From: Candidatus Omnitrophota bacterium
GTDB taxonomy: Bacteria; Omnitrophota; Gorgyraeia; Duberdicusellales; 4484-171
Reading direction: 5' to 3'
Length of the DNA: 64,000 bases
Assembly: GCA_018826075.1 (NCBI GenBank)
Contig: JAHKAJ010000024.1
Coordinates: 69,910-133,909 of the forward strand
The notes under the pieces: generated by a model
Databases searched by the model: none
What the model saw: the letters and a program-made list of their open reading frames with translations, nothing else
What the model was told of the DNA's origin: nothing
Shown here: positions 4,096 to 60,654 of the stretch, one piece after another
Layout of the letters: each line of letters begins with the position of its first letter
How positions within the stretch are numbered: position 1 is the stretch's first letter
Position numbers and translations under genes: made by a program

Positions 4096-5006
4096 ATGCT
4101 TCCTTTAAAGAAAATAGCCTGAACTTTTCCTTTGTGGCTCCGGCCTTGTTTATCTTCTCGATTTTTTATATCTACCCGTTTTTTTACAGCTTTATTCTAA
4201 GCCTGACTAACTACGATTTAATCGGTGATTTCAATTTTAAAAACTACTACGTGGGTTTTAGCAATTTTAGAGATGTATTTACCGATAAAGATTGGTGGAA
4301 GTCGATGTATAACGGCGGTTATATCACTTTCTGGGCTTTGACTTTTCAAAACATCCTGGCTTTTGCTTTAGCTTTAGCCGTAGATAAGGTAGTAAGGCTT
4401 AAAAAGTTTTACCGGGTAGTTTTTTTTATTTTACCGGTGCTTTCAGAAATAATTATCGGCCTTTTGATGAAGCAGCTTTTAATCGGCGAACCTACCGGAA
4501 GGAATGTCTTCAATAACCTGCTTAACAGCGCCGGTTTAGGCTTTATGGCTCAGGATTGGATTGGCGGTGACCGGGTCAGGATGATTACCGCTTTGGTCCA
4601 TTGTTGGAAAGGTTTTGGCTGGGCCTTCGTGATTTTATTTGCCGGATTGCAGACTATTCCCGAACAACTTTATGAAGCGGCTAAAATCGACGGCGCTAAT
4701 GCCTGGCAACAATTTCGCAAGATCACCATCCCCTTAGTCATGCCGGTCATTACCCTGGTAGTTGTTCTTACTATTCTGGGGACGATGCAGGCATTTGCTA
4801 TGATTCTAGCTTTAAATGCCGGCGCCGGCGGAGAAACTACGGTTCCGGTTATGATTATTTTTTCGCATCTTGGCGGCGCCAGCAAATTAGCCGGTTTAGC
4901 CTGCGCTGAAGGTTTGATCTTAGGAGCGATATTAGTGGCCGTTTCTTTCAGTATGTTTTTTGTTTCCAAAAAAGTCAGGGAGAAATACGGTGTATTACCA
5001 AGCTAA
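4092..5006 (+). CDS. sugar ABC transporter permease (MalF/UgpA-like)
   Basis: Multi-pass membrane protein carrying the EAA-like motif AAKIDGANAWQQFRKITIP. Confidence 0.8.
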   Translation: MNASFKENSLNFSFVAPALFIFSIFYIYPFFYSFILSLTNYDLIGDFNFKNYYVGFSNFRDVFTDKDWWKSMYNGGYITFWALTFQNILAFALALAVDKVVRLKKFYRVVFFILPVLSEIIIGLLMKQLLIGEPTGRNVFNNLLNSAGLGFMAQDWIGGDRVRMITALVHCWKGFGWAFVILFAGLQTIPEQLYEAAKIDGANAWQQFRKITIPLVMPVITLVVVLTILGTMQAFAMILALNAGAGGETTVPVMIIFSHLGGASKLAGLACAEGLILGAILVAVSFSMFFVSKKVREKYGVLPS

Positions 5007-5826
5007 GAAAATTATTACGGTTATACTTTTACATACCTTTTTGATCAGCGTAGCTCTTTCCTGTATTTTTCCTTTCTTTTGGATGGTCAATGTATCGTTT
5101 AAGACTCAAAGCGAATATGATGCCGATTCAGGCCTAAAGCTTGCCCAGTCGTTAAATTGGGATAATTACCACAAGGTGATCTTTGAAGGCGGTTTTTGGC
5201 GCTATATCGTCAACAGCGTGGTTTACACCTTTGCTACGGTCATTTTTATTGTTTTTATTTCTTCCCTGGCCGCGTTTGGCTTTTCGCGTTTGAATTTTCC
5301 CGGTAAAAATATTATTTTTTTCATGTTTTTAGCGGCAATGATGATACCGCTTCCGGCTGGTTTTGTCCCGATTTACGCCTTGCTTCAGCAACTGGGGTTA
5401 TTGAACCGGGCAGGATATATCTTTGCCATGACTAATATCGGCTTATCGCTTAGCATTTACCTTTTAAAAACTTTCTTTGACCAGCTGCCGCGGGATCTTG
5501 AAGATGCCGCGCGTATCGACGGCTGCAATAAGCTTCAGATCTGGTGGCATGTAGGTTTGCCGCTGGTTGCTCCGGCTTTAGGGGTAGTAGTTATTTTCAA
5601 TGCCTTGAATGTCTGGAACGAATTTGTTTTGGCTAAGCTTATATTTACCGATGAACAGTTTATGCCGCTTCAAGCCGGGCTGATGGAATTTACCGGAAAG
5701 ATGGTGACCCAGCACACTTTGATTATGACTGCTTTGACTATTGCAGCCCTGCCAATAATTATTTTGTATATAAAAATGCAAAAACAGTTTATTAAAGGGC
5801 TGACTGCCGGGGCAGTGGTGGGATGA
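4960..5826 (+). CDS. sugar ABC transporter permease (MalG/UgpE-like). The true start is probably the GTG near 4990, after an AGGGAG ribosome-binding site.
   Basis: Multi-pass membrane protein carrying the EAA motif DAARIDGCNKLQIWWHVGLP. Confidence 0.8.
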   Translation: MFPKKSGRNTVYYQAKKIITVILLHTFLISVALSCIFPFFWMVNVSFKTQSEYDADSGLKLAQSLNWDNYHKVIFEGGFWRYIVNSVVYTFATVIFIVFISSLAAFGFSRLNFPGKNIIFFMFLAAMMIPLPAGFVPIYALLQQLGLLNRAGYIFAMTNIGLSLSIYLLKTFFDQLPRDLEDAARIDGCNKLQIWWHVGLPLVAPALGVVVIFNALNVWNEFVLAKLIFTDEQFMPLQAGLMEFTGKMVTQHTLIMTALTIAALPIIILYIKMQKQFIKGLTAGAVVG

Positions 5827-8120
5827 TGAAGAATAGCATATCGTATATCGTATGTCGTATATCGTTAATTTGTGTTTTAGTCAGCTTTGCCGCTATAAAT
5901 TGCTTTGGGCAGGAGTCTAATGACTATGTCAAAAAAGGCTGGTCATTGAGAGGGGCTAAAAAATACCAGGAAGCTTATCGGATGATCGAGGAATGCCTTG
6001 AAAAATATTCTGCTGAGGCAGATAAGTTGGCTAAAAAATTGATCGCTTTTCCTCCCGAAGGCAAGGAAACTGATTACCAGGTAATGAACGACGTAGCTGA
6101 ATCTTATTTTATTAAAGCTGAGGTTTTGCGCGATGAAGGAAAAATCGATGAAGCGGTAACTACCTTCCAAATTGTCGTGGATAAGTATCCCTTTGCCCAG
6201 GCTTTTGATCCTCGGGGTTGGTTTTGGAAAATAGCCCAGGCTGCGGCTGATGCGGTTTGCGAAATAACCGGAGTTTGTCCGGAAGAAGAAAATATTGTGG
6301 AAAAAGAAATCCCGGCTGTCCTTTATGACCAGGGTTGCGAGTTTCCGGTAGGTTACTCTAAATACGGAGAGTTTATCGATGAAGGAACTAAGGATTATAA
6401 GTTCAAGGTAAAGGATTCCATTGGTTTATCTAAGGCCGTGGGTGAAGGGATCCACCCTAATACCAGCTCAGTAAAATTTGATCCGGGATTTATTGAAACT
6501 AAAAAGGAACTTTCAACGATCGACCATTGGCAGATCCTAAACAGCCGGAATTCAAAACTTGCCTTTTATAAATGGACTATGGCTCCCGAACCTCCCGGGG
6601 TAAAGCAGTTTCATCTTGCTGAAATTTTGGAACGCAGCGGTTTGATCAAACAAGCGATCAAAGCTTATTATTCGATCTTAGTTCATTTTCCAAAAAGCTA
6701 TGGATGGACTTATTGGCATACCCCTTGGTATGTTGCCAAAGTGGCTCTTTATCGGATTAAGTACCTACTTAAACATCATCCTGAGCTGAGCCTTTCCTTG
6801 GAAGGTGCTGATATCAAGATCTTAAACGGTTACGACAATGATATCCGCAACGATGTTTTTATTGTTAATCCCGGAAGGATAGAGCCGCTTTCTTTTTGGA
6901 AAAAAACTTTATTGTCCAGTGTTTGCTCTGAACGTAAGCGTGATCTCGGTAAAATAGTTGACACCCGGGGTGGAAGCGTCAAGCTGGTTAAATACGCCTC
7001 TGGCGATTGGCAAATGTTTTTAAATGATTCGCCGTTTATGATCAAATCTATCACCTACGGTCCCACCCGGGTCGGAGAATCTCCGGATGACGGCACCATG
7101 CAGAATTGGGGCACCCAGGATTTGAACAATAACCAACTTATCGATGCTCCTTTTGAGGCTTGGGTAGATAAAAATCAGAATAACCTAAAGGATGACGATG
7201 AAAAAACAGTCGGAGATTTCGCTTTATTGAAGGGGATGGGTGCTAATTCGATCCGTCTCTACCATCAGCCTTCAGAATTAAATAAAAAAATTCTTCGACA
7301 AATGCATGGAAAATATGGTATATATATACTACTCGGCGATTTCCTGGGTAAATACACCCTGGGTAGCGGAGCTGACTGGGACCCGGGAACCGACTATGAT
7401 AACCCGGATCAAAAGCAAAAAATGCTTGCTAGTGTTGAGAAAATGGTCCGGGAACACCAGGATGAACCTTATGTGCTGATTTGGTTGTTAGGCAATGAAA
7501 ACGTCTATGGGTTAGGCTGCAACGCTGATAAGAAACCCGAGAGTTTCTTTAAGTTTGCTAATGAAGCAGCCCTCCTGATAAAGTCTTTGGATTCTAAGAA
7601 ACGGCCAGTAGCTATAGTTTCCGGGGATATCCTGTATTTAGATATCTTTGCTAAAAATTGCCCGGATATTGATATCTTTGGCACTAATGCCTACCGGGGC
7701 AAATACGGTTTTTTAGACATTTGGGATGAAGTCCGCCGGGTTTCGGGTAAAGCGGCAATGATAACTGAATATGGGACTTCTTCTTTTTCTAAAGGTTATT
7801 CTTTGAAAGAAAGTGAATTGTACCAGGCTACCTATCATAAAGCCTGTTGGAATGATATCATCTGTAATTCCGCCGGTTTTGGAGCCGGGAATGCTGTGGG
7901 CGGAATAGCCTTTGAATGGCTGGATGAATGGTGGAAGGCTTACAAACCTAACTATCATGATCGAAAGGGCCTTTTTAGCGGCCCGTTTTTAGACGGATAC
8001 ATGCATGAAGAATGGTTGGGACTTTGCGGCCAGGGTGACGGAAGCCAATCGCCTTACTTGAGACATTTGAAAGAAGCTTATTTTACCTATAAAGAGCTTT
8101 GGAATAAAAAGTACGAATAG
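5823..8120 (+). CDS. secreted glycoside hydrolase, clan GH-A TIM barrel with a GH2-like catalytic domain and a ~450-aa N-terminal region of unknown function
   Basis: Signal peptide. Acid/base motif LLGNENVYG and nucleophile motif MITEYGTS resemble LacZ/GUS-type GH2 TIM barrels. It is paralogous to the gene at 9500-10879 (shared FEW(L/S)DEWWK and EEW(L/F)G motifs). Confidence 0.55.
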   Translation: MMKNSISYIVCRISLICVLVSFAAINCFGQESNDYVKKGWSLRGAKKYQEAYRMIEECLEKYSAEADKLAKKLIAFPPEGKETDYQVMNDVAESYFIKAEVLRDEGKIDEAVTTFQIVVDKYPFAQAFDPRGWFWKIAQAAADAVCEITGVCPEEENIVEKEIPAVLYDQGCEFPVGYSKYGEFIDEGTKDYKFKVKDSIGLSKAVGEGIHPNTSSVKFDPGFIETKKELSTIDHWQILNSRNSKLAFYKWTMAPEPPGVKQFHLAEILERSGLIKQAIKAYYSILVHFPKSYGWTYWHTPWYVAKVALYRIKYLLKHHPELSLSLEGADIKILNGYDNDIRNDVFIVNPGRIEPLSFWKKTLLSSVCSERKRDLGKIVDTRGGSVKLVKYASGDWQMFLNDSPFMIKSITYGPTRVGESPDDGTMQNWGTQDLNNNQLIDAPFEAWVDKNQNNLKDDDEKTVGDFALLKGMGANSIRLYHQPSELNKKILRQMHGKYGIYILLGDFLGKYTLGSGADWDPGTDYDNPDQKQKMLASVEKMVREHQDEPYVLIWLLGNENVYGLGCNADKKPESFFKFANEAALLIKSLDSKKRPVAIVSGDILYLDIFAKNCPDIDIFGTNAYRGKYGFLDIWDEVRRVSGKAAMITEYGTSSFSKGYSLKESELYQATYHKACWNDIICNSAGFGAGNAVGGIAFEWLDEWWKAYKPNYHDRKGLFSGPFLDGYMHEEWLGLCGQGDGSQSPYLRHLKEAYFTYKELWNKKYE

Positions 8121-8238: not shown

Positions 8239-9425
8239 TGGGTAGGAGATTATTGTTAGTTGCTCTCTGTCTCATCGGCTGTACCTATTTGGTAACAGCG
8301 AGTGCTTTAAGCGGTGAATGTAAAACGGTGGATAACTTTTTTGTCTATACCGATAAAAATTCACCTTTGAATAATTTTATCCCCAGCGGCTGGATGGGTG
8401 ATTATGGAGATCTGCGGATGAATGACCAGGCTACTGATGAATTCGTTTCCGGTGCGACTTCGATCAAACTTACTTATACCGCTAAAAAAACTCAAGGCCA
8501 AGGTTGGGCCGGGATTTATTGGCAGTCAGCACAAAACAACTGGGGAGCTAAAGACACAGGAGTCGATCTAAGTAAATATAACAAATTGGTTTTAAAGGCT
8601 AAGGGTGAAAACGGCGGCGAGGTCATTACCAAGATGAAAGTAGGCGGCATTACTAAGAATGTAGCTACCGGTGAAGCTGTTGCTTTTCCGGACAGTCTTG
8701 ACGTAGAATCCGGTCCGATCCGTCTGACTAAAGATTGGCAGGAATATTATATAAATCTTGTCGACCAGGATCTTTCCAGTGTCAACGGCGGGTTTGCGGT
8801 AATCTTTAACGTTGACCATGCCGCAGGCGAGCAAGCGATTTATTTGGATGAGGTTTATTTTACTTATGACCCAAATTTAAAGAAAGAAGAAGCCCGCACT
8901 AATTTCCCTTTTTATGTCTATGCTGATTCGAACTCTCTGGACAACCACTTTATCCCCAGCGGCTGGATGCCGGCAACCGCAGCTAAAGATTTACGCTTAA
9001 ATACCAGCTGGAAAAACTATGCTTTTTCCGGAGACAGTTCGATACGCGTTGAGTACAAAAATGAATCGGGAACCCGTTGGGCAGGTATTTACTGGCAACA
9101 GCCGGCAAATAACTGGGGGGAAGTTCCTAACGCCGGTTACAATCTGCAAGGTGCAACTAAACTTACTTTTTGGGCCCGCGGCGACAAAGGCGAAGAAATC
9201 ATTAATGAGTTTAAAGTCGGCGGTATCTCCAGCGGTGAGCATATCGATTCTGACAGCGCCAGCATCGGCCCGGTTAAACTTACTACCGAATGGACTAAAT
9301 ACGAGATCGATTTGACAGGTAAAGACCTATCCTACGTTATCGGCGGTTTTTGCTGGTCGACTAACATCGATGTTAACGATCCCGAAGGTATAGTGTTTTA
9401 CCTCGATGAGATTGCTTACGAATAA
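8239..9425 (+). CDS. secreted protein with two tandem ~190-aa carbohydrate-binding-module-like repeats
   Basis: ATG at 8239 after an AAGAGGAGG ribosome-binding site. Signal peptide present. Internal duplication: FIPSGWMGDYGDL...WAGIYWQSAQNNWG...KVGGI repeated as FIPSGWMPATAAKDL...WAGIYWQQPANNWG...KVGGI. Confidence 0.45.
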
Positions 9426-24538: not shown

Positions 24539-25579
24539 ATGCAGCGCTACCGAGAAGTTTTTCCAGCATTTCATACTTTATATCGTTTGACCACCACCCT
24601 TGACGATTTATCCAGTTTTGCCATGGGTGTTTGTCGTCTTTATCGCAATGCTTTTTCCGCCGACAAAGTGGTAATTGTCTGTAAAGGCAATGCTTCTCAA
24701 GGGTTTATAAAGATTTGTCTTGAAAATAAACGCTCACAGGTAAAAAAAGGCGGCATTTCCATACTTACCCGCGTTGAGCGCGAATTGCTGAAGCAGGAAA
24801 AGGAACTGGTTTTACCTAATCGGTTGATTTATCCCTTTGTCTTTACCCATGTTTTGGGAGGTATTTACATAAAGCGCGGTTCGCACGCCAACGGTTTTAG
24901 CGAAACTGAAAAGCGCTGGTTTCTGTCTCTTTGCGAGGAAGTCAGCCTGGGCTTAAAAATATTTGAACTTTATCAAGAGCAGAAAAAAATAATGCTTAAT
25001 TACATAAAGTCTCTATCCCAATTTTTAAACCAGTACGTACCTACTTCCTATTTGCACACCAAGATCATATTCCGCCTGATCAAGGCTATGACCAAGGCTT
25101 TAAAATTATCCACTGTAGAAGCACAATCCTTAGAATATGCATCGTTACTCCATGATGCCGGAAAAATGCAGGTCCCTTCACAGCTGCTTAAAAAACAACA
25201 ACCGCTTACCGAAGAAGAATTTAAATTAATCGCTAAACACCCTCGCAAAGGTGTCCAATTGTTTAAAAACCTGGAAATTCTAAAGCCGGCTATACCGATA
25301 ATCTTACACCATCATGAGCGTTATGATGGCAAAGGATACCCTTCGAAGTTAAAGAAAGAACAGATACCCCTGGCTTCAAGAATACTAGCGGTTTTAGATA
25401 CTTTTGATGCGATGTATTTTGGCCGGCCTTATCGGCGTAAACGCCGCCTTAAAGAGATTGAAAAAGAATTTCGTGCCCAGCGCGGAAAACAATTTGACCC
25501 GCGGATTGTCGATGTTTTTCTTTCAATACTCAAACGGAAAAATATACAAAAATACTTCAAATTGTCTTCAAAAAAATAG
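24539..25579 (+). CDS. HD-GYP domain c-di-GMP phosphodiesterase with an N-terminal GAF-like sensory domain
   Basis: HD motif (LLHDAGK) and HHERYDGKGYP, the HD-GYP signature. Confidence 0.8.
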   Translation: MQRYREVFPAFHTLYRLTTTLDDLSSFAMGVCRLYRNAFSADKVVIVCKGNASQGFIKICLENKRSQVKKGGISILTRVERELLKQEKELVLPNRLIYPFVFTHVLGGIYIKRGSHANGFSETEKRWFLSLCEEVSLGLKIFELYQEQKKIMLNYIKSLSQFLNQYVPTSYLHTKIIFRLIKAMTKALKLSTVEAQSLEYASLLHDAGKMQVPSQLLKKQQPLTEEEFKLIAKHPRKGVQLFKNLEILKPAIPIILHHHERYDGKGYPSKLKKEQIPLASRILAVLDTFDAMYFGRPYRRKRRLKEIEKEFRAQRGKQFDPRIVDVFLSILKRKNIQKYFKLSSKK

Positions 25580-31966: not shown

Positions 31967-32050
31967 GGTTTACTTCAACCGTACTTCATCACCTACGAGG
32001 AGTCCGCTGACTCCTATCTTACGGCGGCCACCTCGTAGGTGTTACATTTT
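31967..32050. repeat. palindromic repeat element, copy 1 (novel ~75-85-bp family)
   Basis: TTTACTTCAACC-(9 nt)-CACCTACGAGG-AGTCCGCTG...ACGGCGG-CCACCTCGTAGGTG-TTACATTTTA. An 11-bp perfect inverted repeat flanks a ~30-nt sub-palindromic interior. Homologous to copies at 39265, 60546 and 59226. Confidence 0.6.
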
Positions 32051-35457: not shown

Positions 35458-36708
35458 TTAAGGGCTTTTTTCGGGATTAAACCGGGAAATCTGCCTGATT
35501 CGTTCTAAAACCGGTGGATGGCTATAATCCAGGAATACTTTTAAGTGGTGAGGGGTTAAATTAGAAAGATTGTTTACAGTCAGTTTTTTTAAAGCCAGGA
35601 TAAAAGCCTCAGGCTGATCATAGGTAGTTACTGAAAACCGGTCAGCTTCATATTCGTGCCGCCGGGAAAACAGGTTGCCGACTATGGAAAAAATAAAGCC
35701 TATCGGGGTATAAAGAAAACTGAAAAAAATAAGGCTGGCATAAACCGAAATTTGCTCCATCCTAAAAGCTTCAAACAGCCCCGGATTGTTAATAAAAAAA
35801 GAAAGCAGGTAAAACATCAGACCTTTAGTTAGGATCGAGTAGATAAAATTTTTCAGGATATGATTTTTTTTATAGTGGCCGACTTCATGAGCTAACACTG
35901 AGACTATTTCGCTGACACTGTGTTTTTGGATCAAAGTATCGTAAAGGGCGATCCGGCGGGACTTACCAAAGCCGCAAAAGAAAGCGTTAGCTTTGGTTGA
36001 ACGCCGTGATCCATCGATTTTATAAATCCCTTTTAAAGCAAACTTTTGCGAATCAGCATAACGGTTAACCGCATTTTTCAGTTCCCCGTCTTCCAAAGGC
36101 CTAAACTTGTTAAAAAGTGGCAAGATCAACAACGGATAGATAAAGGTGATCAGCCAGCTGAAAATAACCACTCCTAGCCAGCACCAGATCCAAGCTCCGG
36201 GCCCAAAACTGGCAAAAAGAACAATAATCGCATAAAAAGGAAGGCCGCCGATAATCACTAAAAGCAGCCAACTTTTAAGCTTATCGGCAATAAAAGTTTT
36301 AACCCGGGTTTGGTTAAACCCATATCTTTCTTCGATAACAAAAGTGCGGTACCAGGAAAAAGGTAACTCCAGAATTTGAGCGACAAAAATAATGATTCCG
36401 GCAAAAATCAATCCGGTTAACGCGAAATTTAAATTCAGGCTACGGGCGATCCGGTCAGCCAGGTTAAAACCTCCGATCAGAATAAAACCGACAACCGCTA
36501 AAGTAAAGACTGTTTCCTGAACCAGGTTGAATTTGGTATTTGTGGTAAGGTATCTTTGGGATTTACGGTAGCTTTCCGGTTGATAATAGCCTTTAAATTC
36601 TTCTGGCAGGTCAGGATCAAGCGCCCTAAGGTTAAGGATTTCAGCTAAAAACCTAAACAGGTAGTTAACGGCTAAAATAGTTAAAATCGCGATTAGATAT
36701 AGATTCAT
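35458..36708 (-). CDS. Ste24-type (CAAX prenyl protease-like) M48 family zinc metalloprotease, polytopic membrane protein
   Basis: About seven TM helices. HEVGHYKKNH (HExxH) and downstream E...NLSN motifs of M48A. Confidence 0.75.
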   Translation of the reverse strand: MNLYLIAILTILAVNYLFRFLAEILNLRALDPDLPEEFKGYYQPESYRKSQRYLTTNTKFNLVQETVFTLAVVGFILIGGFNLADRIARSLNLNFALTGLIFAGIIIFVAQILELPFSWYRTFVIEERYGFNQTRVKTFIADKLKSWLLLVIIGGLPFYAIIVLFASFGPGAWIWCWLGVVIFSWLITFIYPLLILPLFNKFRPLEDGELKNAVNRYADSQKFALKGIYKIDGSRRSTKANAFFCGFGKSRRIALYDTLIQKHSVSEIVSVLAHEVGHYKKNHILKNFIYSILTKGLMFYLLSFFINNPGLFEAFRMEQISVYASLIFFSFLYTPIGFIFSIVGNLFSRRHEYEADRFSVTTYDQPEAFILALKKLTVNNLSNLTPHHLKVFLDYSHPPVLERIRQISRFNPEKSP

Positions 36709-36740: not shown

Positions 36741-36766
36741 TAATAAAAAGGGCCGACAAGGGCCCA
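36741..36766 (-). terminator. intrinsic terminator forming the expression platform of the c-di-GMP riboswitch
   Basis: Minus strand GGGCC-CUUGUC-GGCCC followed by UUUUUAUU. It ends about 33 nt upstream of the ATG of the M48 gene. Confidence 0.5.
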
Positions 36767-36849
36767 CGGTATGTCAACCGGCAACTCAGCCGCCCTAATA
36801 GCCCTTAAGGGTTTTAATCCGTAAGTTGGGGGAGCCTGTTTTTCGAAAG

Positions 36850-36945
36850 ATTTTGGACTTTTAACCCCCGGAACTATCTTAGGCCTGTTACAGCTTTGCG
36901 TCCCCGCCTTTCGACGGGTTTGCCCTTATCGGCAATTAAAGTATA
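36850..36945 (-). promoter_or_regulatory. c-di-GMP-I (GEMM) riboswitch aptamer
   Basis: Minus-strand RNA AAGGGCAAACC-CGUC-GAAA-GGCGG-GGACGCAAAGC-UGUAACAGG-CCUAAG... matches the GEMM-I consensus (AGGGCAAACC, P1b hairpin with GNRA tetraloop, GGACGCAAAGC, GGCCUAA) nearly base-for-base. Compare the Vibrio Vc2 aptamer. Confidence 0.7.
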
Positions 36946-36984
36946 CCTTATTCAGGCTGCCAATTTCAAGTCTAAGTAACCAGT

Positions 36985-38031
36985 TTATTTAGCCAAGTGC
37001 ACAGTTTGAGTCGGAAAGGCAAATTCAATACCGCGTTTTTCAAGTTCAGCCTTTATCGAAAAGTTGATTTCCTGCTGAATATCCATATACTTGTTGTAAT
37101 CCGAACTTAACACATAGTAAACCACTTCAAAAACCAGGTTAAAATCGCCGTAAGCGGAAAAATGAGCCCGGTCAAAAAGCGCATCTTTGACTTTTTTTAT
37201 GATCTCGGCAATCGCCCCCGGCATTTCTTTGAGTTTGGAGAGCGGAGTGTCGTAGGTGACTCCTAGATGAAAGACAACCCTTCTTTTCTGCATTCGTTTA
37301 TAGTTACGCAGGCGGGAATCAGTTAAATCAGAGTTAGAAAAAACCAGTTCTTCTCCGCCAAGGCTACGAATGCGAGTAGTCTTGATGCCGACGTGTTCGA
37401 CAGTGCCCAGAAGGTCTCCGACTATGATAAAATCGCCTATTTCAAAGGGACGGTCAATAACAATTGCAAAGTAACTGAATAAATCTTTTAAAACTGCCTG
37501 AGCCGCTAAAGCTATGGCTACACCACCGATACCCAGGCCGGCAATAACCGTTGTAATTTTAAACCCCAAGTTATCCAGATAAAAAATAAGGGCTAAAACC
37601 CAGATCGAAAATTTAACTACCTTCAATACTCCACTCAAGCTGTGTTTTAATGACTGGCCTTTGTCGGATTTATGCCAGTATACTTCAAAACCATAGTTGA
37701 CCAAACGGATGATCAGGCGAACCGAAAACACAGTCAGAACCGCAATGGCTAAGGTATTAATAATCCGCACCAGATAATCGTTTAAAGTTAGGGACTTGAT
37801 CCCTAGGTATAACCCAAAAAGGTAAAGAAAAGGTACGGCTATCTTTTCAATGATCTCCACTAAAAAATCGTCAAGGGTATTGCTGGTTTTTTCTGCCCAA
37901 CTTTTAAGACGTTTTAAAAAGATTATTTTAAATACTTTGGCCGCAAAACTGATGCCTAAAAAAATAGCCGCACAAATCAAATAACTCAACAATGAATTAC
38001 CAAAAAATATGAGATTTAGAGACTCTGGCAT
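36985..38031 (-). CDS. mechanosensitive ion channel, MscS family
   Basis: Multiple N-terminal TM helices followed by an MscS beta-domain (IGDFIIVGDLLGTVEHVGIKTTRIRSLGGEE). Confidence 0.8.
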   Translation of the reverse strand: MPESLNLIFFGNSLLSYLICAAIFLGISFAAKVFKIIFLKRLKSWAEKTSNTLDDFLVEIIEKIAVPFLYLFGLYLGIKSLTLNDYLVRIINTLAIAVLTVFSVRLIIRLVNYGFEVYWHKSDKGQSLKHSLSGVLKVVKFSIWVLALIFYLDNLGFKITTVIAGLGIGGVAIALAAQAVLKDLFSYFAIVIDRPFEIGDFIIVGDLLGTVEHVGIKTTRIRSLGGEELVFSNSDLTDSRLRNYKRMQKRRVVFHLGVTYDTPLSKLKEMPGAIAEIIKKVKDALFDRAHFSAYGDFNLVFEVVYYVLSSDYNKYMDIQQEINFSIKAELEKRGIEFAFPTQTVHLAK

Positions 38032-38045
38032 AATTCCTCCTGAAC

Positions 38046-39239
38046 TTAGTTTTCCGATATTAAATAGGGAGATTTGGCCTTTTGTATATTTAGAGCGATA
38101 GAAAGCTCTTGTTCTGATAAAAAGCCGGATTCCTTTAGGATCTCACCAAGAGCCACGCCTTTTTTCCAATGAGTCAAAAGGGCTTCGTTAAGTTGTTCGG
38201 CAGAGATTGATTGCCGTTCGACTAAAATCTGGCCCAAAGGTTTATAGAAGCTTTCGGATTTACGTTGGGAAATCTCCGGCTTAGCATCTTTGTTTATTTT
38301 AGTATCCCGGCGGTCAACCATAAACTTACTTCCCGGGATAGCTTTCAGATAACGTTTTATCTCAGCGACCTTCTCATTGAGCTGGATCATGTTTTCAATT
38401 CCAAAAGTATACTCTTTATTTACTACCGCCACCGAAACTGTCATTAAAGGCGTATTAGTAAGTTTACGCGACCGGTCCCGGCTTACCACAAAACCCTGCT
38501 GACGGTCAGTTTCAGAATAATGAAAAGGCATCAGCTGGTCAAAATTCTTAATGAAGTTACGGCAAATCTTTTGATATTTGTCCAAGCTGGAAATAAAAAC
38601 GAAATCATCGCCTCCAATATGGCCGACGAAATCGTCGGGATTGCCGAAATTTCTTACTGCCGCGATCAATAAATAGGCAGTCTGAAGTATCGCCCCGTCT
38701 CCTCTACGGTAACCATAAACATCATTAAAAGATTTAAAATTATCGATATCCAAGTAAGCAAAAGAAAAAGGATTGCCTTTTTTAAATTTTTCATTCAGAA
38801 CATCCTCAAATATCTTGCTTCCGGGAAGGCCGGTTAAAGAGCTGGCATAGATGCTATGTTGAGAACGCCTGACCGCCATCTCGATTCTTATCCGTAAATC
38901 TAATGGGTCCGGTGGTTTTATTAAATAGTCATCCACGCCTTGTTTTAAGTTTAACAACTGGGCTCTTAATTGGCGTTTATTGATTAGGGTTATAACCGGT
39001 ATAAAAGCAGTGGTGAAATTTTCTTTTAACTGCCGGCAGATAGCCAGTTGTTCCTTACGGGCAGATTGGATATCGATGACAATCACATCGGGTGAAATTT
39101 TTTTGATTTTTTCGATATCCTGAGGTTCAGAGAATTGGCGCAAAATAACTTCATAGCCCCAGCCGTCAAAGCAAAAACGCAAAACTTCCTTTAGCTGGTT
39201 GTCAGAAGAAATAATCAGGATTTTCTTAATGGTATCCAT
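38046..39239 (-). CDS. response-regulator receiver, GGDEF diguanylate cyclase and C-terminal MshEN-like c-di-GMP-binding domain
   Basis: REC domain (DIVIIDIQ, Asp pocket). GGDEF domain with GGDDF active-site motif and RGDG. The C-terminus carries two LG(Q/E)IL...(S/L)..(E/Q)L..AL repeats typical of MshEN/T2SSE_N. Confidence 0.75.
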   Translation of the reverse strand: MDTIKKILIISSDNQLKEVLRFCFDGWGYEVILRQFSEPQDIEKIKKISPDVIVIDIQSARKEQLAICRQLKENFTTAFIPVITLINKRQLRAQLLNLKQGVDDYLIKPPDPLDLRIRIEMAVRRSQHSIYASSLTGLPGSKIFEDVLNEKFKKGNPFSFAYLDIDNFKSFNDVYGYRRGDGAILQTAYLLIAAVRNFGNPDDFVGHIGGDDFVFISSLDKYQKICRNFIKNFDQLMPFHYSETDRQQGFVVSRDRSRKLTNTPLMTVSVAVVNKEYTFGIENMIQLNEKVAEIKRYLKAIPGSKFMVDRRDTKINKDAKPEISQRKSESFYKPLGQILVERQSISAEQLNEALLTHWKKGVALGEILKESGFLSEQELSIALNIQKAKSPYLISEN

Positions 39240-39264
39240 CGCGAATATTATAACATCCTACAGG

Positions 39265-39348
39265 TTTTACTTCAACCATGCTGCGCCACCTTCGAGGAGT
39301 CCGCTGGCCTCTATCCTACGGCGGACACCTCGAAGGTGTAGAGTTTTA
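39265..39348. repeat. palindromic repeat element, copy 2
   Basis: TTTTACTTCAACC...CACCTTCGAGG-AGTCCGCTGGCCTCTATCCTACGGCGGA-CACCTCGAAGGTG-TAGAGTTTTA. Both stem arms carry the compensatory A-to-T / T-to-A change relative to copies 1 and 3. Confidence 0.6.
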
Positions 39349-39352
39349 GAAT

Positions 39353-42300
39353 TTATTCTTTTTTTGGTTTCTTTTGTTCCTCGGATATTTTTTGGGCGAT
39401 TTCCTTAGGCACCGGAATATACTTTTTAAAGTGCATTGAACAACTGGCCCGGCCGCTGGAAAGTGACCGTAGATTAGTGACATGGCCGAACATCTCAGCC
39501 AAAGGAGCTTCAGCCAGGATCTGTTTCTGGCCGCCTTTAGTCTCCATGCCCAAAATTTTACCTCTTCGGGAACAGATATAACCGACAATGCTGCTGGTGT
39601 ATTCTTCGGGAGTGAGGATCTCTAAATCCATGCAAGGTTCAATAAGGGTTGGCTCGCACTTTAAAAAAGCTTCACGAAAACAGCCCAAAGCCGCAAGCTT
39701 AAAGGCAATCTCTGAAGAATCGACCTCATGATAGGAACCATCGATAAGGTTTATTTTAATATCCACTACTGGATAACCGGCATAAGCGCCTTTCTTCATG
39801 GCCTCAATAAGGCCCTTTTGAACTGCCGGAATAAAATTTTTAGGTATAGCCCCACCTTTAATGCTGTCAGTAAATTCAAATCCGGCTGCCGGCTGGTTAG
39901 GAGAAAGCTCAAAAACTACGTGGCCGTACTGACCTCGTCCTCCGCTTTGTTTAACATGCTTATATTCCTGAGTTGCTGAGCCGGAAATTGTCTCTTTATA
40001 GGCTACTTTGGGCTGACCCACCGTAGCCGAAACCTTAAATTCTTCTTTGAGACGCTCAACAATTATTTCCAAATGCAGTTCGCCCATTCCCGAAAGAATT
40101 GTCTCAAGAGTCTCTTCATCAGTGTGAGCGGTAAAGGTCGGGTCTTCTTCGGTAAGTTTAGCGATTCCTTTAGCCAACCGGTCCTGATCAGTGCGGCTTT
40201 CCGGTTTGATGCTTATCGAAACTACTGGATCGGAAAAAACTATTGATTCAAGCAGTATGGGGTTTTCTGAATTGCAAAGAGTATCTCCAGTTAAAGTAAA
40301 GTTCAACCCGACTATTGCTCCGATATCACCGGCAAACATAACGTCAACGTTTTCCCTCTGGTTGGCATGCATGCGGACAATCCTACCCACGCGTTCTTTT
40401 TTATTTTTAGTCGCGTTTAGAATATAACTACCGGCCTTTAAAAACCCCGAATAAACCCGTGCGTAAACCAACTTGCCTACGTGTTGATCAGCCTGAACCT
40501 TAAAAGCTAAGGCCGAAAAAGTTTCCTCATCCTGAGGCTTACGTTCTAATTTTTTTTCCGGGTCATCAGGGTCATTGCCGATCACTGCCGGTACTTGGGC
40601 CGGCGACGGCAAATAAACAGTAATCGCATCAAGCAAATCCTGGATACCTTTGTTTTTTAAAGCTGCTCCGCATAAAACCGGTATGATCTTATTTTCAACT
40701 GTCGCCTGATGCAGAGCTTTCTTAATCTCCTCGTTAGTAATTGTATCTTCTGACTGAAGATATTTTTCCATCAGTTGGTTGTCAAAAGAAGCAACTTTTT
40801 CTATTAAGCTGTGGCGGTATTGTTTAGCCAACTCCTTGTCGTTTTCGGGTATTTCTTCCAGCTTGATATCTTTGCCGAAGGAATTCTCATCATAAAATTT
40901 AGCCTTCATCTCAATAAGGTCGATCACACCCTTAAACTCAGTTTCTTTGCCGACCGGTATTTGTAAAGCTACGGCATTAGCCCCGAGAGTAGTGACTATT
41001 TCCTGAAAAACTTTAAAAAAATCAGCACCCAGTCTGTCCATTTTGTTAATAAAGGCTATTTTGGGGACTTTATATTTAATCGATTGGCGCCAGACAGTCT
41101 CGGTTTGTGATTCAACTCCGCCTACCGCACAAAATACTGCGACTGCTCCGTCAAGAACCCTCAAAGATCGTTCTACCTCAGCGGTAAAATCAACGTGGCC
41201 AGGAGTATCAATGATCGTGATCTGGCAATCAGCCCAATTACAGGTAGTTGCTGCTGAAGTTATGGTAATGCCTCTTTCCTGTTCTTGTTTCATCCAATCC
41301 ATCTGGGCAGCTCCGTCATGGACTTCGCCGATTTTATGAGAACGGCCGGTATAAAAAAGAATCCTTTCAGTGAGCGTAGTCTTTCCAGCGTCAATATGGG
41401 CCATAATGCCGATATTGCGGATTTTATCCAAAGTTATTTTTCTTTCCGGAGGCGGTTCTTCTTTTTTCTTAACCATCTCCGTCTTGACTTCCGGTTCGGG
41501 TTTAGCTATCTCTTCCTCTGCCGGTAGCTGGATCGGGGCCGGATTTTCAGCTAATGGTTCTTCAGCTGGAACTTCCAAAGGCGGACTTTCTTCAGGCAAC
41601 TCGGGAATTGCCGGTTTTTCTTCCGGGTTTTGCGGTTCAGGCGTTAAAGTAACGGTACGCTCAAGACCCCGCAACTGGTTAAGAATACGGATCCTTTCCT
41701 CATCAATTTTTTTTGTTTCTTCCTCTTTGAGCGTCAACTCCTTTTTTTTGATTTCCAGTTCGTCTCGCAAATTTTCACATTGATTTTCCAACAAAGAATA
41801 ATCTTCTTTGGAAATCCAGCCGCTTTGACGCTCTTGTTCCTTAAGTTTGGTCAAATCGGCCAGATATTGGTTTTTTTCTTTAGCTAGATCCTGCATCTTT
41901 TGGCCCTGCTCTTTGGCTTTAGTCTCTAATAAGATTATTTTCTCATTTAGCTGGCTGAGGTTTTCCTCTTTTATCCCGATCACTTCTTCGGTTTGCTTAA
42001 GGTCCTTCTTAAGCTGGACATTATTGGAAAATTCTTTTTCCAACTGTTTTTCGGTTTCAATGAATTTAAACTTTAAAGTTTCATAAGGGCCTTTGCCTTT
42101 TTTCAAAATATCCTGTTGGCTATTCAGCCATTTTTTATTTCGTTGCAGTTCATCAGTCAACTCTTTGACCTTTTGGCTGCTGGCCTGATATTTTTGCTGT
42201 AAAGCCAAGTTATCAGTCTTAGCCTTTTCCAAAGAAATGTTTTCATTTCTAACTTCTAACATTTCCCGTTTTAAAATTTTAACATTTTCATGAAGGGTGA

Positions 42301-42439
42301 GGATTTTTTGAGCCTCGGGGCTGGACTTGGAAAGGAATCCCCGGCTAAGCAATTTTTTCGGGTCTAAAGAATCGTCGGTATTTACCGCGTAAAGAACCAG
42401 GGCTACCGCTACTCCGATAAAAAGAAAAATTACCACCAT
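39353..42439 (-). CDS. elongation factor G homolog fused in-frame to an N-terminal TM anchor, ~250-aa coiled coil and Pro/Glu-rich linker
   Basis: Residues ~340-1028 are a full EF-G ([14 protein letters not shown], domain [11 protein letters not shown]). Residues 1-330 are a hydrophobic N-terminus, Lys/Glu/Gln-rich heptad sequence and a PEPE linker, with no stop codon in the frame. An internal Met ~20 aa before the G-domain could be an alternative start. Confidence 0.7.
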
Positions 42440-49356: not shown

Positions 49357-49439
49357 TGCACCCTGATTTACTTAGCCCTAAAAAATAAATCTTTCAAGTC
49401 ATTCCGCGTAACTTAAAAAAATTCTCTAACCTTTGATCA

Positions 49440-49585
49440 GGTATTCTGACTTCCCCGCTCTCTTAGCGGCCTTCCCATCCGGCTGGACAGTGGCTAAAAG
49501 GCTAAAAGAGTTCCCCGAATTTCGGGGCAGGGTTACAGCTGCGGGACAGCTACCGATTCGCACGGTATTCCCTAAACCAAAGAAT
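49440..49585 (-). promoter_or_regulatory. cobalamin (AdoCbl) riboswitch
   Basis: Minus-strand RNA contains UUAGGGAAUACCGUGCGAAUCGGUAGCUGUCCCGCAGCUGUAA (compare consensus AGGGAA..GGUG.AAAUCC..GCUG.CCCGCAAC.GUAA). It also has the B12 box AGCCACUG and a downstream GGGAAGGC. Confidence 0.7.
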
Positions 49586-49589
49586 AGTC

Positions 49590-50096
49590 TTAATTTGACA
49601 AAAGAGCAAGTTTAGCCTTGCGGCTTGGGACCTTTTTGGATACAAATTCATAGGTACCCAAAAGTACCAGCATATAAAATACATTTGAAACTAATGACGT
49701 CCTGAAAAAAGGTATGGCTAAAGTGTAACATTGGATTAAACCGTTTATTGTCCGGGGATACCAGCCACCCAGCCAAACACCGAGATTAGTGACAATAAAA
49801 AAGATGACCGAAGAAATCGCAGCATAAGAAAGATTGGTCACCAGGCTTTGATTTCGTTTTAATCGTTTACCCAACAAAGTTATCAGAAAAACACTGCCCC
49901 AGGTAAATAAAACTACTCCGTGTAACCCGATTATCAAATCGGAGATGACATAGAGTACTATCGGCAACCAAAGCGAATATTTTTTATTCAGGTAAGCACC
50001 CGAAAACAAAGCGATGGCTATGATTGGGCTAAAATTAGCCAAATGCGGGGTTAACCGGGAAGCCAGGCCAAGAATAAACAACGCGATTATTAACAT
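49590..50096 (-). CDS. hypothetical polytopic membrane protein (168 aa)
   Basis: About five TM helices. No confident family assignment. Confidence 0.45.
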   Translation of the reverse strand: MLIIALFILGLASRLTPHLANFSPIIAIALFSGAYLNKKYSLWLPIVLYVISDLIIGLHGVVLFTWGSVFLITLLGKRLKRNQSLVTNLSYAAISSVIFFIVTNLGVWLGGWYPRTINGLIQCYTLAIPFFRTSLVSNVFYMLVLLGTYEFVSKKVPSRKAKLALLSN

Positions 50097-59824: not shown

Positions 59825-60654
59825 TGGGTACCTCCTTGGTTTAAAACCCTTAGTTTATCTTCTATGTTTTTTATCCTGGCCTCAGGGTCAGGATGTGATG
59901 ACAAGTAAAAAGGAACCTGCCCGCGATTGTTATTTTCAGCTTCAAGCTTTTTAAAAAGAGTTAAAGCGGCTCGCGGCTGGTAGCCGGCAGAATTAACATA
60001 CTGAAAGGCTAAAGAGTCGGCTTCCAGCTCGTCTTTTCGTGAATAACCCAACGATATTAAACCGTATAACTGATCGACCATTTGTTTGGCCTGGGTTTGT
60101 TCCGGAGTCCTTAGTAAGGTAGCAGCTAAGACACTAACGCTTAAACTTGCCCCCAGCTGTTTTAAGCTGTGCCGGGCAGAAACGTGGCCGATCTCATGAG
60201 CCAGGACAAAAGCTAATTCCTGCTGGCTGACTTTATCCAGTAGGCCCCGGTAAACAAAAATATGGCCGCCGGGAATAGCTAAAGCATTGACTTCCGGTGC
60301 ATCAATAATATAAAAATGGTAAGTAAGGTTATTACGGTGGCTTACTGCAGCTACTTTATTCCCAATCGCCGCAATTACTGTATTCTTTTCAGGATCACTA
60401 TTGATCTTATTCTCATCAATGAACTGCCGAGCCATGGCATCACCCCAGGAAACCTCCCCCTTTTCATCAAAAATATACCATTCCTTTTTACCGCTTACCG
60501 GATTATAAACCGAAACACAACCCGATAATAGAACTAAAAAAACTATTACTCCAACCGCGCTGCGCCACCTACGAGGAGTCCCGCCTTCGGCGGGCCACCT
60601 CGTAGGTGTAGAATCTTTACTTGCCGTAAAATTGCATTTGCTTTTTTTACTCAT
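59821..60654 (-). CDS. M48 family zinc metallopeptidase lipoprotein. The first ~25 codons are encoded by repeat copy 3, so the annotated start is doubtful.
   Basis: HExxH motif LAHEIGHVSARH. Lipoprotein signal VIVFLVLLSGC is preceded by an unusually long basic N-extension. Confidence 0.7.
   Translation of the reverse strand: MSKKSKCNFTASKDSTPTRWPAEGGTPRRWRSAVGVIVFLVLLSGCVSVYNPVSGKKEWYIFDEKGEVSWGDAMARQFIDENKINSDPEKNTVIAAIGNKVAAVSHRNNLTYHFYIIDAPEVNALAIPGGHIFVYRGLLDKVSQQELAFVLAHEIGHVSARHSLKQLGASLSVSVLAATLLRTPEQTQAKQMVDQLYGLISLGYSRKDELEADSLAFQYVNSAGYQPRAALTLFKKLEAENNNRGQVPFYLSSHPDPEARIKNIEDKLRVLNQGGTQ
60546..60620. repeat. palindromic repeat element, copy 3
   Basis: TTACTCCAACC...CACCTACGAGG-AGTCCCGCCTTCGGCGGGC-CACCTCGTAGGTG-TAGAATCTTTAC. 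The interior is replaced by a compact GC hairpin with UUCG loop. Confidence 0.6.

Follow-up and report, generated by a model that had tools for sequence, protein, structure and literature searches.

A REC-GGDDF-MshEN_N protein of Omnitrophota as a putative diguanylate cyclase that may carry a receptor for its own product

Diguanylate cyclases that join a receiver (REC) domain to a GGDEF domain and MshEN receptors for cyclic di-GMP (c-di-GMP), a second messenger, are each already established. WspR of Pseudomonas aeruginosa, PleD of Caulobacter crescentus, and DgcR of Leptospira are built from an N-terminal REC domain, a helical linker, and a GGDEF fold, while MshE of Vibrio cholerae and modules GSPII-B and GSPII-C of Thermus thermophilus PilF have tandem 24-residue motifs, set apart by a 5-residue spacer, with characteristic Leu, Gly, and Gln residues (PMC5013675). 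The partners of MshEN listed by Wang et al. are REC, HD-GYP, CheA, CheX, adenylate cyclase, kinase, and glycosyltransferase (PMC5013675). Here we analyzed a 64,000-nucleotide (nt) stretch of contig JAHKAJ010000024.1 from a Candidatus Omnitrophota bacterium (positions 69,910 to 133,909; hereafter, the window), in which a 397-amino-acid (aa) ATG-to-stop reading frame from the list of open reading frames (ORFs; positions 38046..39239, minus strand) encodes a REC domain, a GGDEF domain of the GGDDF type, a linker, and an MshEN_N tail. Every part of this protein is of a known kind; the combination, judged from the sequence, is real and is not described in the literature that we found, and a REC-GGDEF-MshEN architecture is absent from both that literature and the list of Wang et al. 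We assign a probability of about 50% to the whole of the following chain: the protein would be an orphan response regulator in which phosphorylation-driven dimerization leads to c-di-GMP synthesis, and the tail would bind the product and feed back on the enzyme.

The order of domains proposed in the initial annotation, a REC domain followed by a GGDEF fold and an MshEN-type c-di-GMP motif, was borne out by Pfam (Response_reg and GGDEF), by NCBIfam NF053729, by phmmer searches of the PDB, and by hhalign. A 100% identical protein (P0001) carries the database name “diguanylate cyclase [Candidatus Omnitrophica bacterium],” and longer forms are found in precomputed Pfam annotation as Response_reg, GGDEF, and MshEN, such that the architecture is visible in databases. 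The full-length AlphaFold2 (AF2) model had a mean pLDDT (predicted local distance difference test) of 82.4, with values of 64-68 in the linker that precedes the tail (residues 313-332; 38244..38303, minus strand), which varies in both sequence and length in alignments.

The tail itself (residues 333-386; 38082..38243, minus strand) is a predicted MshEN_N c-di-GMP-binding module. Motif I, PLGQILVERQSISAEQLNEALLTH (residues 334-357; nt 38169-38240, minus strand), is joined by the 5-residue spacer WKKGV to motif II, ALGEILKESGFLSEQELSIALNIQ (residues 363-386; nt 38082-38153, minus strand). Together they fit the pattern tested, namely two 24-residue motifs of the form xLGxx(L/V/I)(L/V/I)xxG(L/V/I)(L/V/I)xxxxLxxxLxxQ with a 5-residue spacer, and deviate from it at G18 (Q343) and Q32 (H357). 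The two motifs read in the C terminus by the initial annotation are present as written and diagnostic on three lines of evidence: (i) NCBIfam NF053729 (“cyclic di-GMP-binding domain, MshE-related”) aligned profile positions 1-52 of 53 to residues 334-385, scoring 48.7 bits (curated cutoff, 38; E 4.8e-13); (ii) phmmer against the PDB retrieved T. thermophilus PilF (E 6.6e-11) and V. cholerae MshE (5HTL; E 1.5e-3), the latter in register with MshE residues 7-56; and (iii) hhalign, run with a profile of 18 orthologous tails against one of MshE, PilF GSPII-A/B/C, and NfrB, aligned all 55 columns (probability 99.25%, E 5e-20). In an alignment of 73 orthologues, the basis of the conservation counts given here, L335, G336, L339, L350, L354, L364, G365, L368, G372, L379, L383, and Q386 were invariant or nearly so, and these are the c-di-GMP-contacting positions of MshEN. 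The Arg that begins each motif in MshE (R9 and R38) is replaced by P334 (73/73) and by A363 (V, I, or A in the orthologues, Val or Ile in most), and motif I ends in His-Trp rather than Gln.

Where MshE and PilF carry the module N-terminally on a secretion or pilus ATPase, here it is C-terminal on an enzyme and consists of MshEN_N alone. A closer parallel in layout is Escherichia coli NfrB, in which a C-terminal MshEN-type module activates the N-terminal enzyme on binding c-di-GMP (PMC8669469). NfrB and the tail are 44% identical over 52 residues (E 1e-10) and share a Pro at motif position 1 and a Gln at the G18 position; the first motif of NfrB is nearly the same as that here (PLGQILLENQVITEEQLDTAL versus PLGQILVERQSISAEQLNEAL). 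The NfrB enzyme is a glycosyltransferase that uses c-di-GMP as an effector, however, whereas the enzyme here would make the ligand, and NfrB, unlike the 397-aa protein, has a full MshEN and transmembrane helices. Only 11 residues follow motif II, and the MshEN_C/T2SSE_N1 subdomain is not present; by its sequence, the tail belongs to the “MshEN_N only” proteins, a class in the supplement of Wang et al. (PMC5013675). An MshEN_N-only response regulator reported to bind c-di-GMP tightly, Bdellovibrio Bd2402 (REC, MshEN_N, and a region of unknown kind; Wang 2016), joins REC to MshEN_N with no GGDEF domain in the middle and has a more weakly conserved motif than the one here.

The initial annotation had looked to Pfam for a T2SSE_N/MshEN match, and this check formally fails: PF05157 gave no match in the 397-aa protein even at E<=1. 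In relatives of 466-494 aa, which share the 53-residue motif, a PF05157 match begins only beyond it (approximately residues 392-480), and in relatives of ~480 aa PF05157 covers the ~85 residues following the motif. PF05157 is therefore silent on the 397-aa protein because it models the later MshEN_C/T2SSE_N1 subdomain, which is missing here, and we rejected the missing match as a refutation, given that in the longer relatives it covers the post-motif segment alone. Of the c-di-GMP-binding fold that had been claimed, the 53-residue MshEN_N subdomain stands and the full MshEN/T2SSE_N does not. This explanation of the Pfam miss is one of two useful additions of the present analysis, the other being the recognition of the large, uncharacterized H-x-GGDDF clade described below. 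When the 84-aa tail was the sole query, a word-indexed homology search returned no match. Support from structure prediction is weak: in the full-length AF2 model the tail forms four helices of the expected lengths (335-341, 347-360, 364-370, and 376-388), and the model of the isolated tail has three and no relevant structural match.

The enzyme domain (residues ~134-312; 38304..38840, minus strand) is a GGDEF-fold nucleotide-cyclase domain by Pfam PF00990 (residues 134-219, 51.1 bits against a cutoff of 23.8) and by Foldseek, in which it matched isolated GGDEF domains with a TM-score (target) of 0.76-0.81. WspR, PleD, and DgcR were the best PDB matches in both sequence and structure (Foldseek of the full-length model, E 1e-17 to 1e-19), at ~20% identity and with NCBIfam scores far below the equivalog cutoffs (PleD, 73 versus 474; DgcR, 52 versus 500). 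In alignment with PleD, D164 takes the place of the metal-binding Asp (PleD D327), and N172 and D181 those of the guanine-binding N335 and D344. These residues, along with D173 and the first four positions of the GGDDF active-site motif (residues 209-213; 38601..38615, minus strand, read from sequence), are invariant in the orthologues (G209, G210, D211, and D212, each 73/73), with F213 kept in 71/73. Differences from WspR, PleD, and DgcR include GGDDF in place of GGEEF or GGDEF, a His for the Arg before it, no RxxD motif, and an altered C-terminal phosphate-binding region relative to PleD. The RxxD of the allosteric inhibitory site (I-site), an optional feature of the family, sought five residues upstream of GG at the suggestion of the initial annotation, was not found; the aligned positions read N200-x-x-D203, with N in 71/73 orthologues.

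Degenerate GGDEF domains of the receptor type usually lose the metal- and guanine-binding residues. The invariance across phyla of the catalytic-type residues argues for an active enzyme, and retention of the Asn/Asp guanine pair argues for GTP as its substrate, such that catalysis by the GGDDF domain is likely on present alignments. The motif that was initially called intact is present, although it is not the canonical GG(D/E)EF: Asp replaces the Glu of the fourth position, His replaces the Arg, and the Pfam match spans half of the profile. We infer the name “diguanylate cyclase” rather than read it from the motif, since GGDDF is noncanonical and has one active and one inactive precedent.

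An additional feature that sets the domain apart from WspR, PleD, and DgcR is a conserved, clade-specific insert of ~25 residues after helix 3 (241-266; 38442-38519, minus strand), which forms a short helix and a beta-hairpin in the AF2 model. Y241, R256, and P264 of the insert are invariant across phyla, D245, G249, and G258 nearly so, and it could provide an extra nucleotide- or partner-binding surface. An exhaustive search of 1.84 billion representatives yielded 756 clusters at E<1e-30, and among the 158 relatives retrieved, made up of the best 150 representatives together with members of clusters, the signature was GGDDF in 136, GGDDY in 3, and GGEDY in 1, with no GGDEF or GGEEF detected by regular expression. 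A His stands two residues before GG in 133 of the 140 clade members scored, and RxxD was seen in just 3 of those scored. Across phyla, D164, K169, N172, D173, G180, H207, GGDDF, K299, S304, and R311 are invariant; D181 is the exception, with Asn in its place in a few clade members. Many phyla have the REC-GGDDF core, among them Elusimicrobiota, Clostridia, Chloroflexota, Planctomycetota, Acidobacteriota, Gemmatimonadota, Nitrospirota, and Actinomycetota (including the cultured Salinispora, Micromonospora, and Actinoplanes), and it is also present in Anaeromyxobacteraceae.

By these sequence criteria, H-x-GGDDF is a coherent, large, multiphylum, and apparently uncharacterized clade that amounts to hundreds of clusters at 50% identity, as a rule with a REC fusion; a literature search found neither a characterized member nor a description of it. 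Most members consist of REC and GGDDF alone, without a further output domain. In two proteins read from sequence, the same domain occurs as REC-GGDDF-...-EAL (P0139, 754 aa) and as REC-GGDDF-REC-HD-GYP (P0146, 668 aa), where it could serve as a regulatory nucleotide-binding domain. The MshEN_N motif was present in ~20 of the 150 best representatives, and matches running through the tail in named genomes came from Omnitrophota or unclassified metagenome-assembled genomes (including P0125). Within Omnitrophota the 397-aa form is abundant, the best 120 matches being 367-416 aa long and 59-100% identical. It is quite unlikely, though worth stating, that within the GGDEF superfamily the clade forms a branch with a function of its own, its chemistry or regulation differing from that of classical diguanylate cyclases (for example, in product, in metal dependence, or by its missing I-site), with the Omnitrophota fusions acting as a self-contained c-di-GMP “homeostat” or cross-talk node; if it were so, one Omnitrophota polypeptide would both sense c-di-GMP through a high-affinity receptor module and emit a nucleotide signal, phylum-wide, beside a mechanosensitive channel. 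The clade is automatically annotated as “diguanylate cyclase” even though its signature lies outside the accepted active consensus, and the activity of a single member would bear on the annotation of hundreds of protein clusters in many phyla.

The REC domain (residues ~5-122; 38874..39227, minus strand) was matched by Pfam PF00072 (Response_reg) at residues 7-119 over the full profile, and its (beta-alpha)5 pattern is visible in the AF2 model. The phospho-acceptor Asp56 (codon at nt 39072-39074, minus strand) and K108-P109 are each conserved in 73/73 orthologues, D13 in 72/73, and T84 in 64/73. Deviations are Ser12 at the first acidic position and an atypical loop (QSARKEQ) after D56. These residues make phospho-regulation of the protein plausible.

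In the mechanism that we favor, phosphorylation of Asp56 would promote dimerization, as in WspR, PleD, and DgcR, and the paired GGDDF domains would condense two GTP into c-di-GMP, as suggested by the invariant metal ligands and the Asn/Asp guanine pair. The tail would then bind one c-di-GMP, with a sub-micromolar to micromolar affinity if its motif conservation and characterized relatives are a guide, and, being flexibly tethered, might relay its occupancy to the enzyme. Speculatively, this relay would be auto-inhibition in place of the missing RxxD; feedback would most likely be inhibitory because no I-site exists. The c-di-GMP made could also act on a c-di-GMP-I riboswitch ~1.1 kb downstream, which would control an M48 protease, and on PilZ-type receptors, encoded near the orthologues in three related loci (L003, L004, and L086). 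Fusions of PilZ to GGDEF are reported to exist (Amikam & Galperin 2006). Were the tail to bind and the GGDDF domain to be active, the protein would be a diguanylate cyclase that reads its own product by a dedicated, high-affinity receptor module instead of the classical RxxD I-site, which would be a way of arranging feedback or local signaling that is new to c-di-GMP networks.

Several observations weigh against this proposal. The REC domain scored only marginally above the Pfam cutoff (32.1 bits against 30.2), and no kinase was found nearby, a crude regular expression for the histidine-kinase H-box being empty over the ORFs of the window. In the enzyme domain, Pfam matches no more than the domain's first half (positions 5-90 of the 161 in the profile); GGDDF does not fit [GAS]G[DE]E[FY], the consensus accepted for active enzymes (PMC8835794); His207, invariant in the orthologues, stands in for a conserved Arg (PleD R366) two residues ahead of GG; Ser304 apparently occupies the position of PleD R446 (by manual reading of the alignment); and PA3258, a GGDDF-EAL protein, is without cyclase activity (PMC8835794). 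Furthermore, because clade members of ~311 aa have neither an I-site nor any tail, a missing I-site does not require a tail to stand in for it, and any feedback could be of either sign. Three other readings can be set beside the favored one, and they do not exclude each other. The least improbable of them, which we nonetheless doubt, is that the GGDDF domain has no catalytic activity or serves just to sense nucleotides and that the protein is a c-di-GMP effector or adaptor, integrating phosphorylation (REC) and c-di-GMP (MshEN_N) and acting through protein contacts with, for example, the MscS channel encoded next to it. Such a role would suit the noncanonical signature, the His for Arg, and the half-profile match, the other GGDDF proteins besides PA3258 that are reported inactive or of unknown activity, and the conserved operon-like linkage to MscS, and the clade members in which GGDDF precedes EAL (P0139) or HD-GYP (P0146) recall GTP-sensing pseudo-cyclases like CC3396. 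It is harder to reconcile with metal- and guanine-binding residues and a GGDDF motif that are invariant across phyla, as in a selected active site, with the lack of an I-site at which c-di-GMP would bind to an inactive GGDEF domain, and with the prevalence of bare REC-GGDDF proteins without other output. That GGDDF can be active is shown by Geobacter GSU1937, active in vivo and the sole precedent that we found for GGDDF catalysis (PMC8835794). By its published description, GSU1937 differs from the protein here in having a transmembrane N terminus and the Ser of Hypr enzymes at the specificity position, and it makes cyclic GMP-AMP (cGAMP) (PMC8835794).

That same precedent lends itself to another reading, in our view very unlikely, by which the H-x-GGDDF clade makes some other cyclic or linear (di)nucleotide and the tail provides cross-talk from c-di-GMP instead of self-feedback: the one GGDDF enzyme of proven activity is a cGAMP synthase of the Hypr type, the specificity position of PleD D344 is Asn in a few members of the clade, and the clade is sharply separate, with no GGDEF or GGEEF among the retrieved relatives, H for R, and an insert with invariant Y241, R256, and P264. 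In the protein here and all 73 orthologues, however, the guanine pair Asn172/Asp181 is invariant and the Hypr Ser is not present, and genes for PilZ and HD-GYP proteins and a c-di-GMP riboswitch cluster with the gene here and in related genomes. We consider it probable that the tail binds c-di-GMP. A tail that keeps the MshEN_N pattern without binding c-di-GMP, as in XpsE or PilF GSPII-A, and serves instead as a helix bundle for dimerization or docking would account for the loss of both motif-initial Arg residues, for the His357 that replaces the terminal Gln of motif I just as H33 does in the nonbinding PilF GSPII-A, for the Ser at position I19, for the lack of an MshEN_C subdomain, and for the isolated-tail model without a four-helix bundle. 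We judge this to be unlikely in light of the characterized proteins. NfrB, with a Pro at motif position 1, binds c-di-GMP with a dissociation constant (Kd) of ~1 uM, and its residues L490 and G491, critical for binding (PMC8669469), correspond to L335 and G336 of the tail. PilF GSPII-C also has a Pro at the first position and a Kd similar to that of MshE, and in PilF GSPII-B both motif Arg residues are replaced (K167 and L196), yet the Kd is 6 nM (PMC11731258); P334 and A363 are therefore not disqualifying. The 53 residues of MshEN_N alone make a binding site, and the loss of binding in XpsE has been ascribed to changes at Gly, Leu, and Gln positions (G11, L29, G40, L54, L58, and Q61; PMC5013675), the equivalents of which are all kept in the tail, where the motif positions are under strong purifying selection in the 73 orthologues.

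The favored reading places a cyclase in a neighborhood with further c-di-GMP components. The gene adjoins mscS, as originally noted: an MscS-family mechanosensitive channel (36985..38031, minus strand; Pfam MS_channel_1st/2nd/3rd) is encoded 14 nt downstream, and the two genes are probably cotranscribed. The same-strand, GEMM-controlled protease placed downstream by the initial annotation was confirmed as well, with an M48 membrane metalloprotease of the Ste24/HtpX type (35458..36708, minus strand; Pfam Peptidase_M48_N 173 bits, Peptidase_M48 115.8 bits) and a c-di-GMP-I (GEMM-I) riboswitch (36777..36934, minus strand; Rfam RF01051, 61.7 bits against a gathering threshold of 35, full model). 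The riboswitch lies in the 276-nt gap between the MscS and M48 genes, 69 nt upstream of the M48 start, and has a 71-nt insertion in its second hairpin loop; consensus scans placed a promoter-like site 5' of it (36940-36969, minus strand) and a GC-rich, terminator-like hairpin 3' of it (36750-36765, minus strand). A gene for a DinB-like (IMS-family) polymerase follows M48, and upstream of the REC-GGDDF-MshEN_N gene are a long paralogue of elongation factor G (EF-G) and a divergent YqeY gene.

The order of long EF-G, REC-GGDDF-MshEN_N, MscS, and M48 recurs in the related loci L004 and L085, in L087 with a two-gene insertion, and in L002, where the contig end truncates the EF-G gene and the order begins with what is left of its 3' part. 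MscS directly follows the orthologue in L002, L004, and L085 and comes after the insertion in L087. Orthologues in these syntenic loci are 60-80% identical, a range that resembles that of the neighboring MscS and M48, and we rejected the idea that conservation is unusual for a signaling protein. We likewise rejected a riboswitch that always accompanies the gene: it was found in the window and in L004 alone (8338-8493, an 80%-identical relative) and not in L002, L085, or L087, in which the gap between MscS and M48 measures 37-58 nt. The regulator, the MscS channel, the M48 protease, and sometimes a c-di-GMP riboswitch would form a conserved module of Omnitrophota, a phylum almost entirely uncultured, that may tie second-messenger signaling to envelope or osmotic stress.

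Other loci place the gene beside further c-di-GMP genes. A STAS-PilZ gene (6230-6952) starts 3 nt after the orthologue in L086, and another (280-999) lies ~5 kb upstream of it in L004; in L003, three small PilZ genes lie upstream, and the orthologue is separated by 4 nt from the end of a PAS-GGDEF-HD-GYP gene that precedes it (c-di-GMP genes at 1-955 and 4354-5997). In L001 the orthologue is found in unrelated surroundings. The window also encodes a 346-aa HD_5/HD protein of the HD-GYP-type phosphodiesterase family (24539-25579, plus strand; 134 bits), the gene for which adjoins HIT and metallophosphoesterase genes. This gene content clearly points to c-di-GMP signaling operating in these organisms.

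Just 5' of the REC-GGDDF-MshEN_N start codon, a consensus scan picked out a promoter-like site (39247..39275, minus strand; TTGAAG-17-TATAAT with TG), in a region where the number of such sites is no more than in shuffled sequences. The TATAAT ends 7 nt before the ATG and no obvious Shine-Dalgarno sequence was seen (39240-39275, minus strand; consensus scan); the transcript may have little or no leader. A palindromic repeat of ~70 nt, CACCT(T/A)CGAGG...CCTCG(A/T)AGGTG, has three copies in the window (31990-32041, 39287-39338, and 60566-60608), its arms giving 6 matches where 0.66 were expected, and the copies differ by T/A and A/T changes that compensate each other in the stem. A 17-bp hairpin is predicted for the copy that separates the EF-G paralogue from the REC-GGDDF-MshEN_N gene (dG -41.9, z -3.7), and the repeat looks like a repetitive extragenic palindromic (REP)-like element or a bidirectional terminator. 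The EF-G paralogue (39353-42439, minus strand) has 1028 aa, including an N-terminal extension of ~335 aa that is coiled coil and rich in Pro and Glu; the long form also occurs in L085 and L087 (1051-1054 aa), and identity to relatives is 36-53% in the extension and 70-80% in the EF-G core. The minus strand also has a cobalamin riboswitch at 49419-49595 (79.4 bits).

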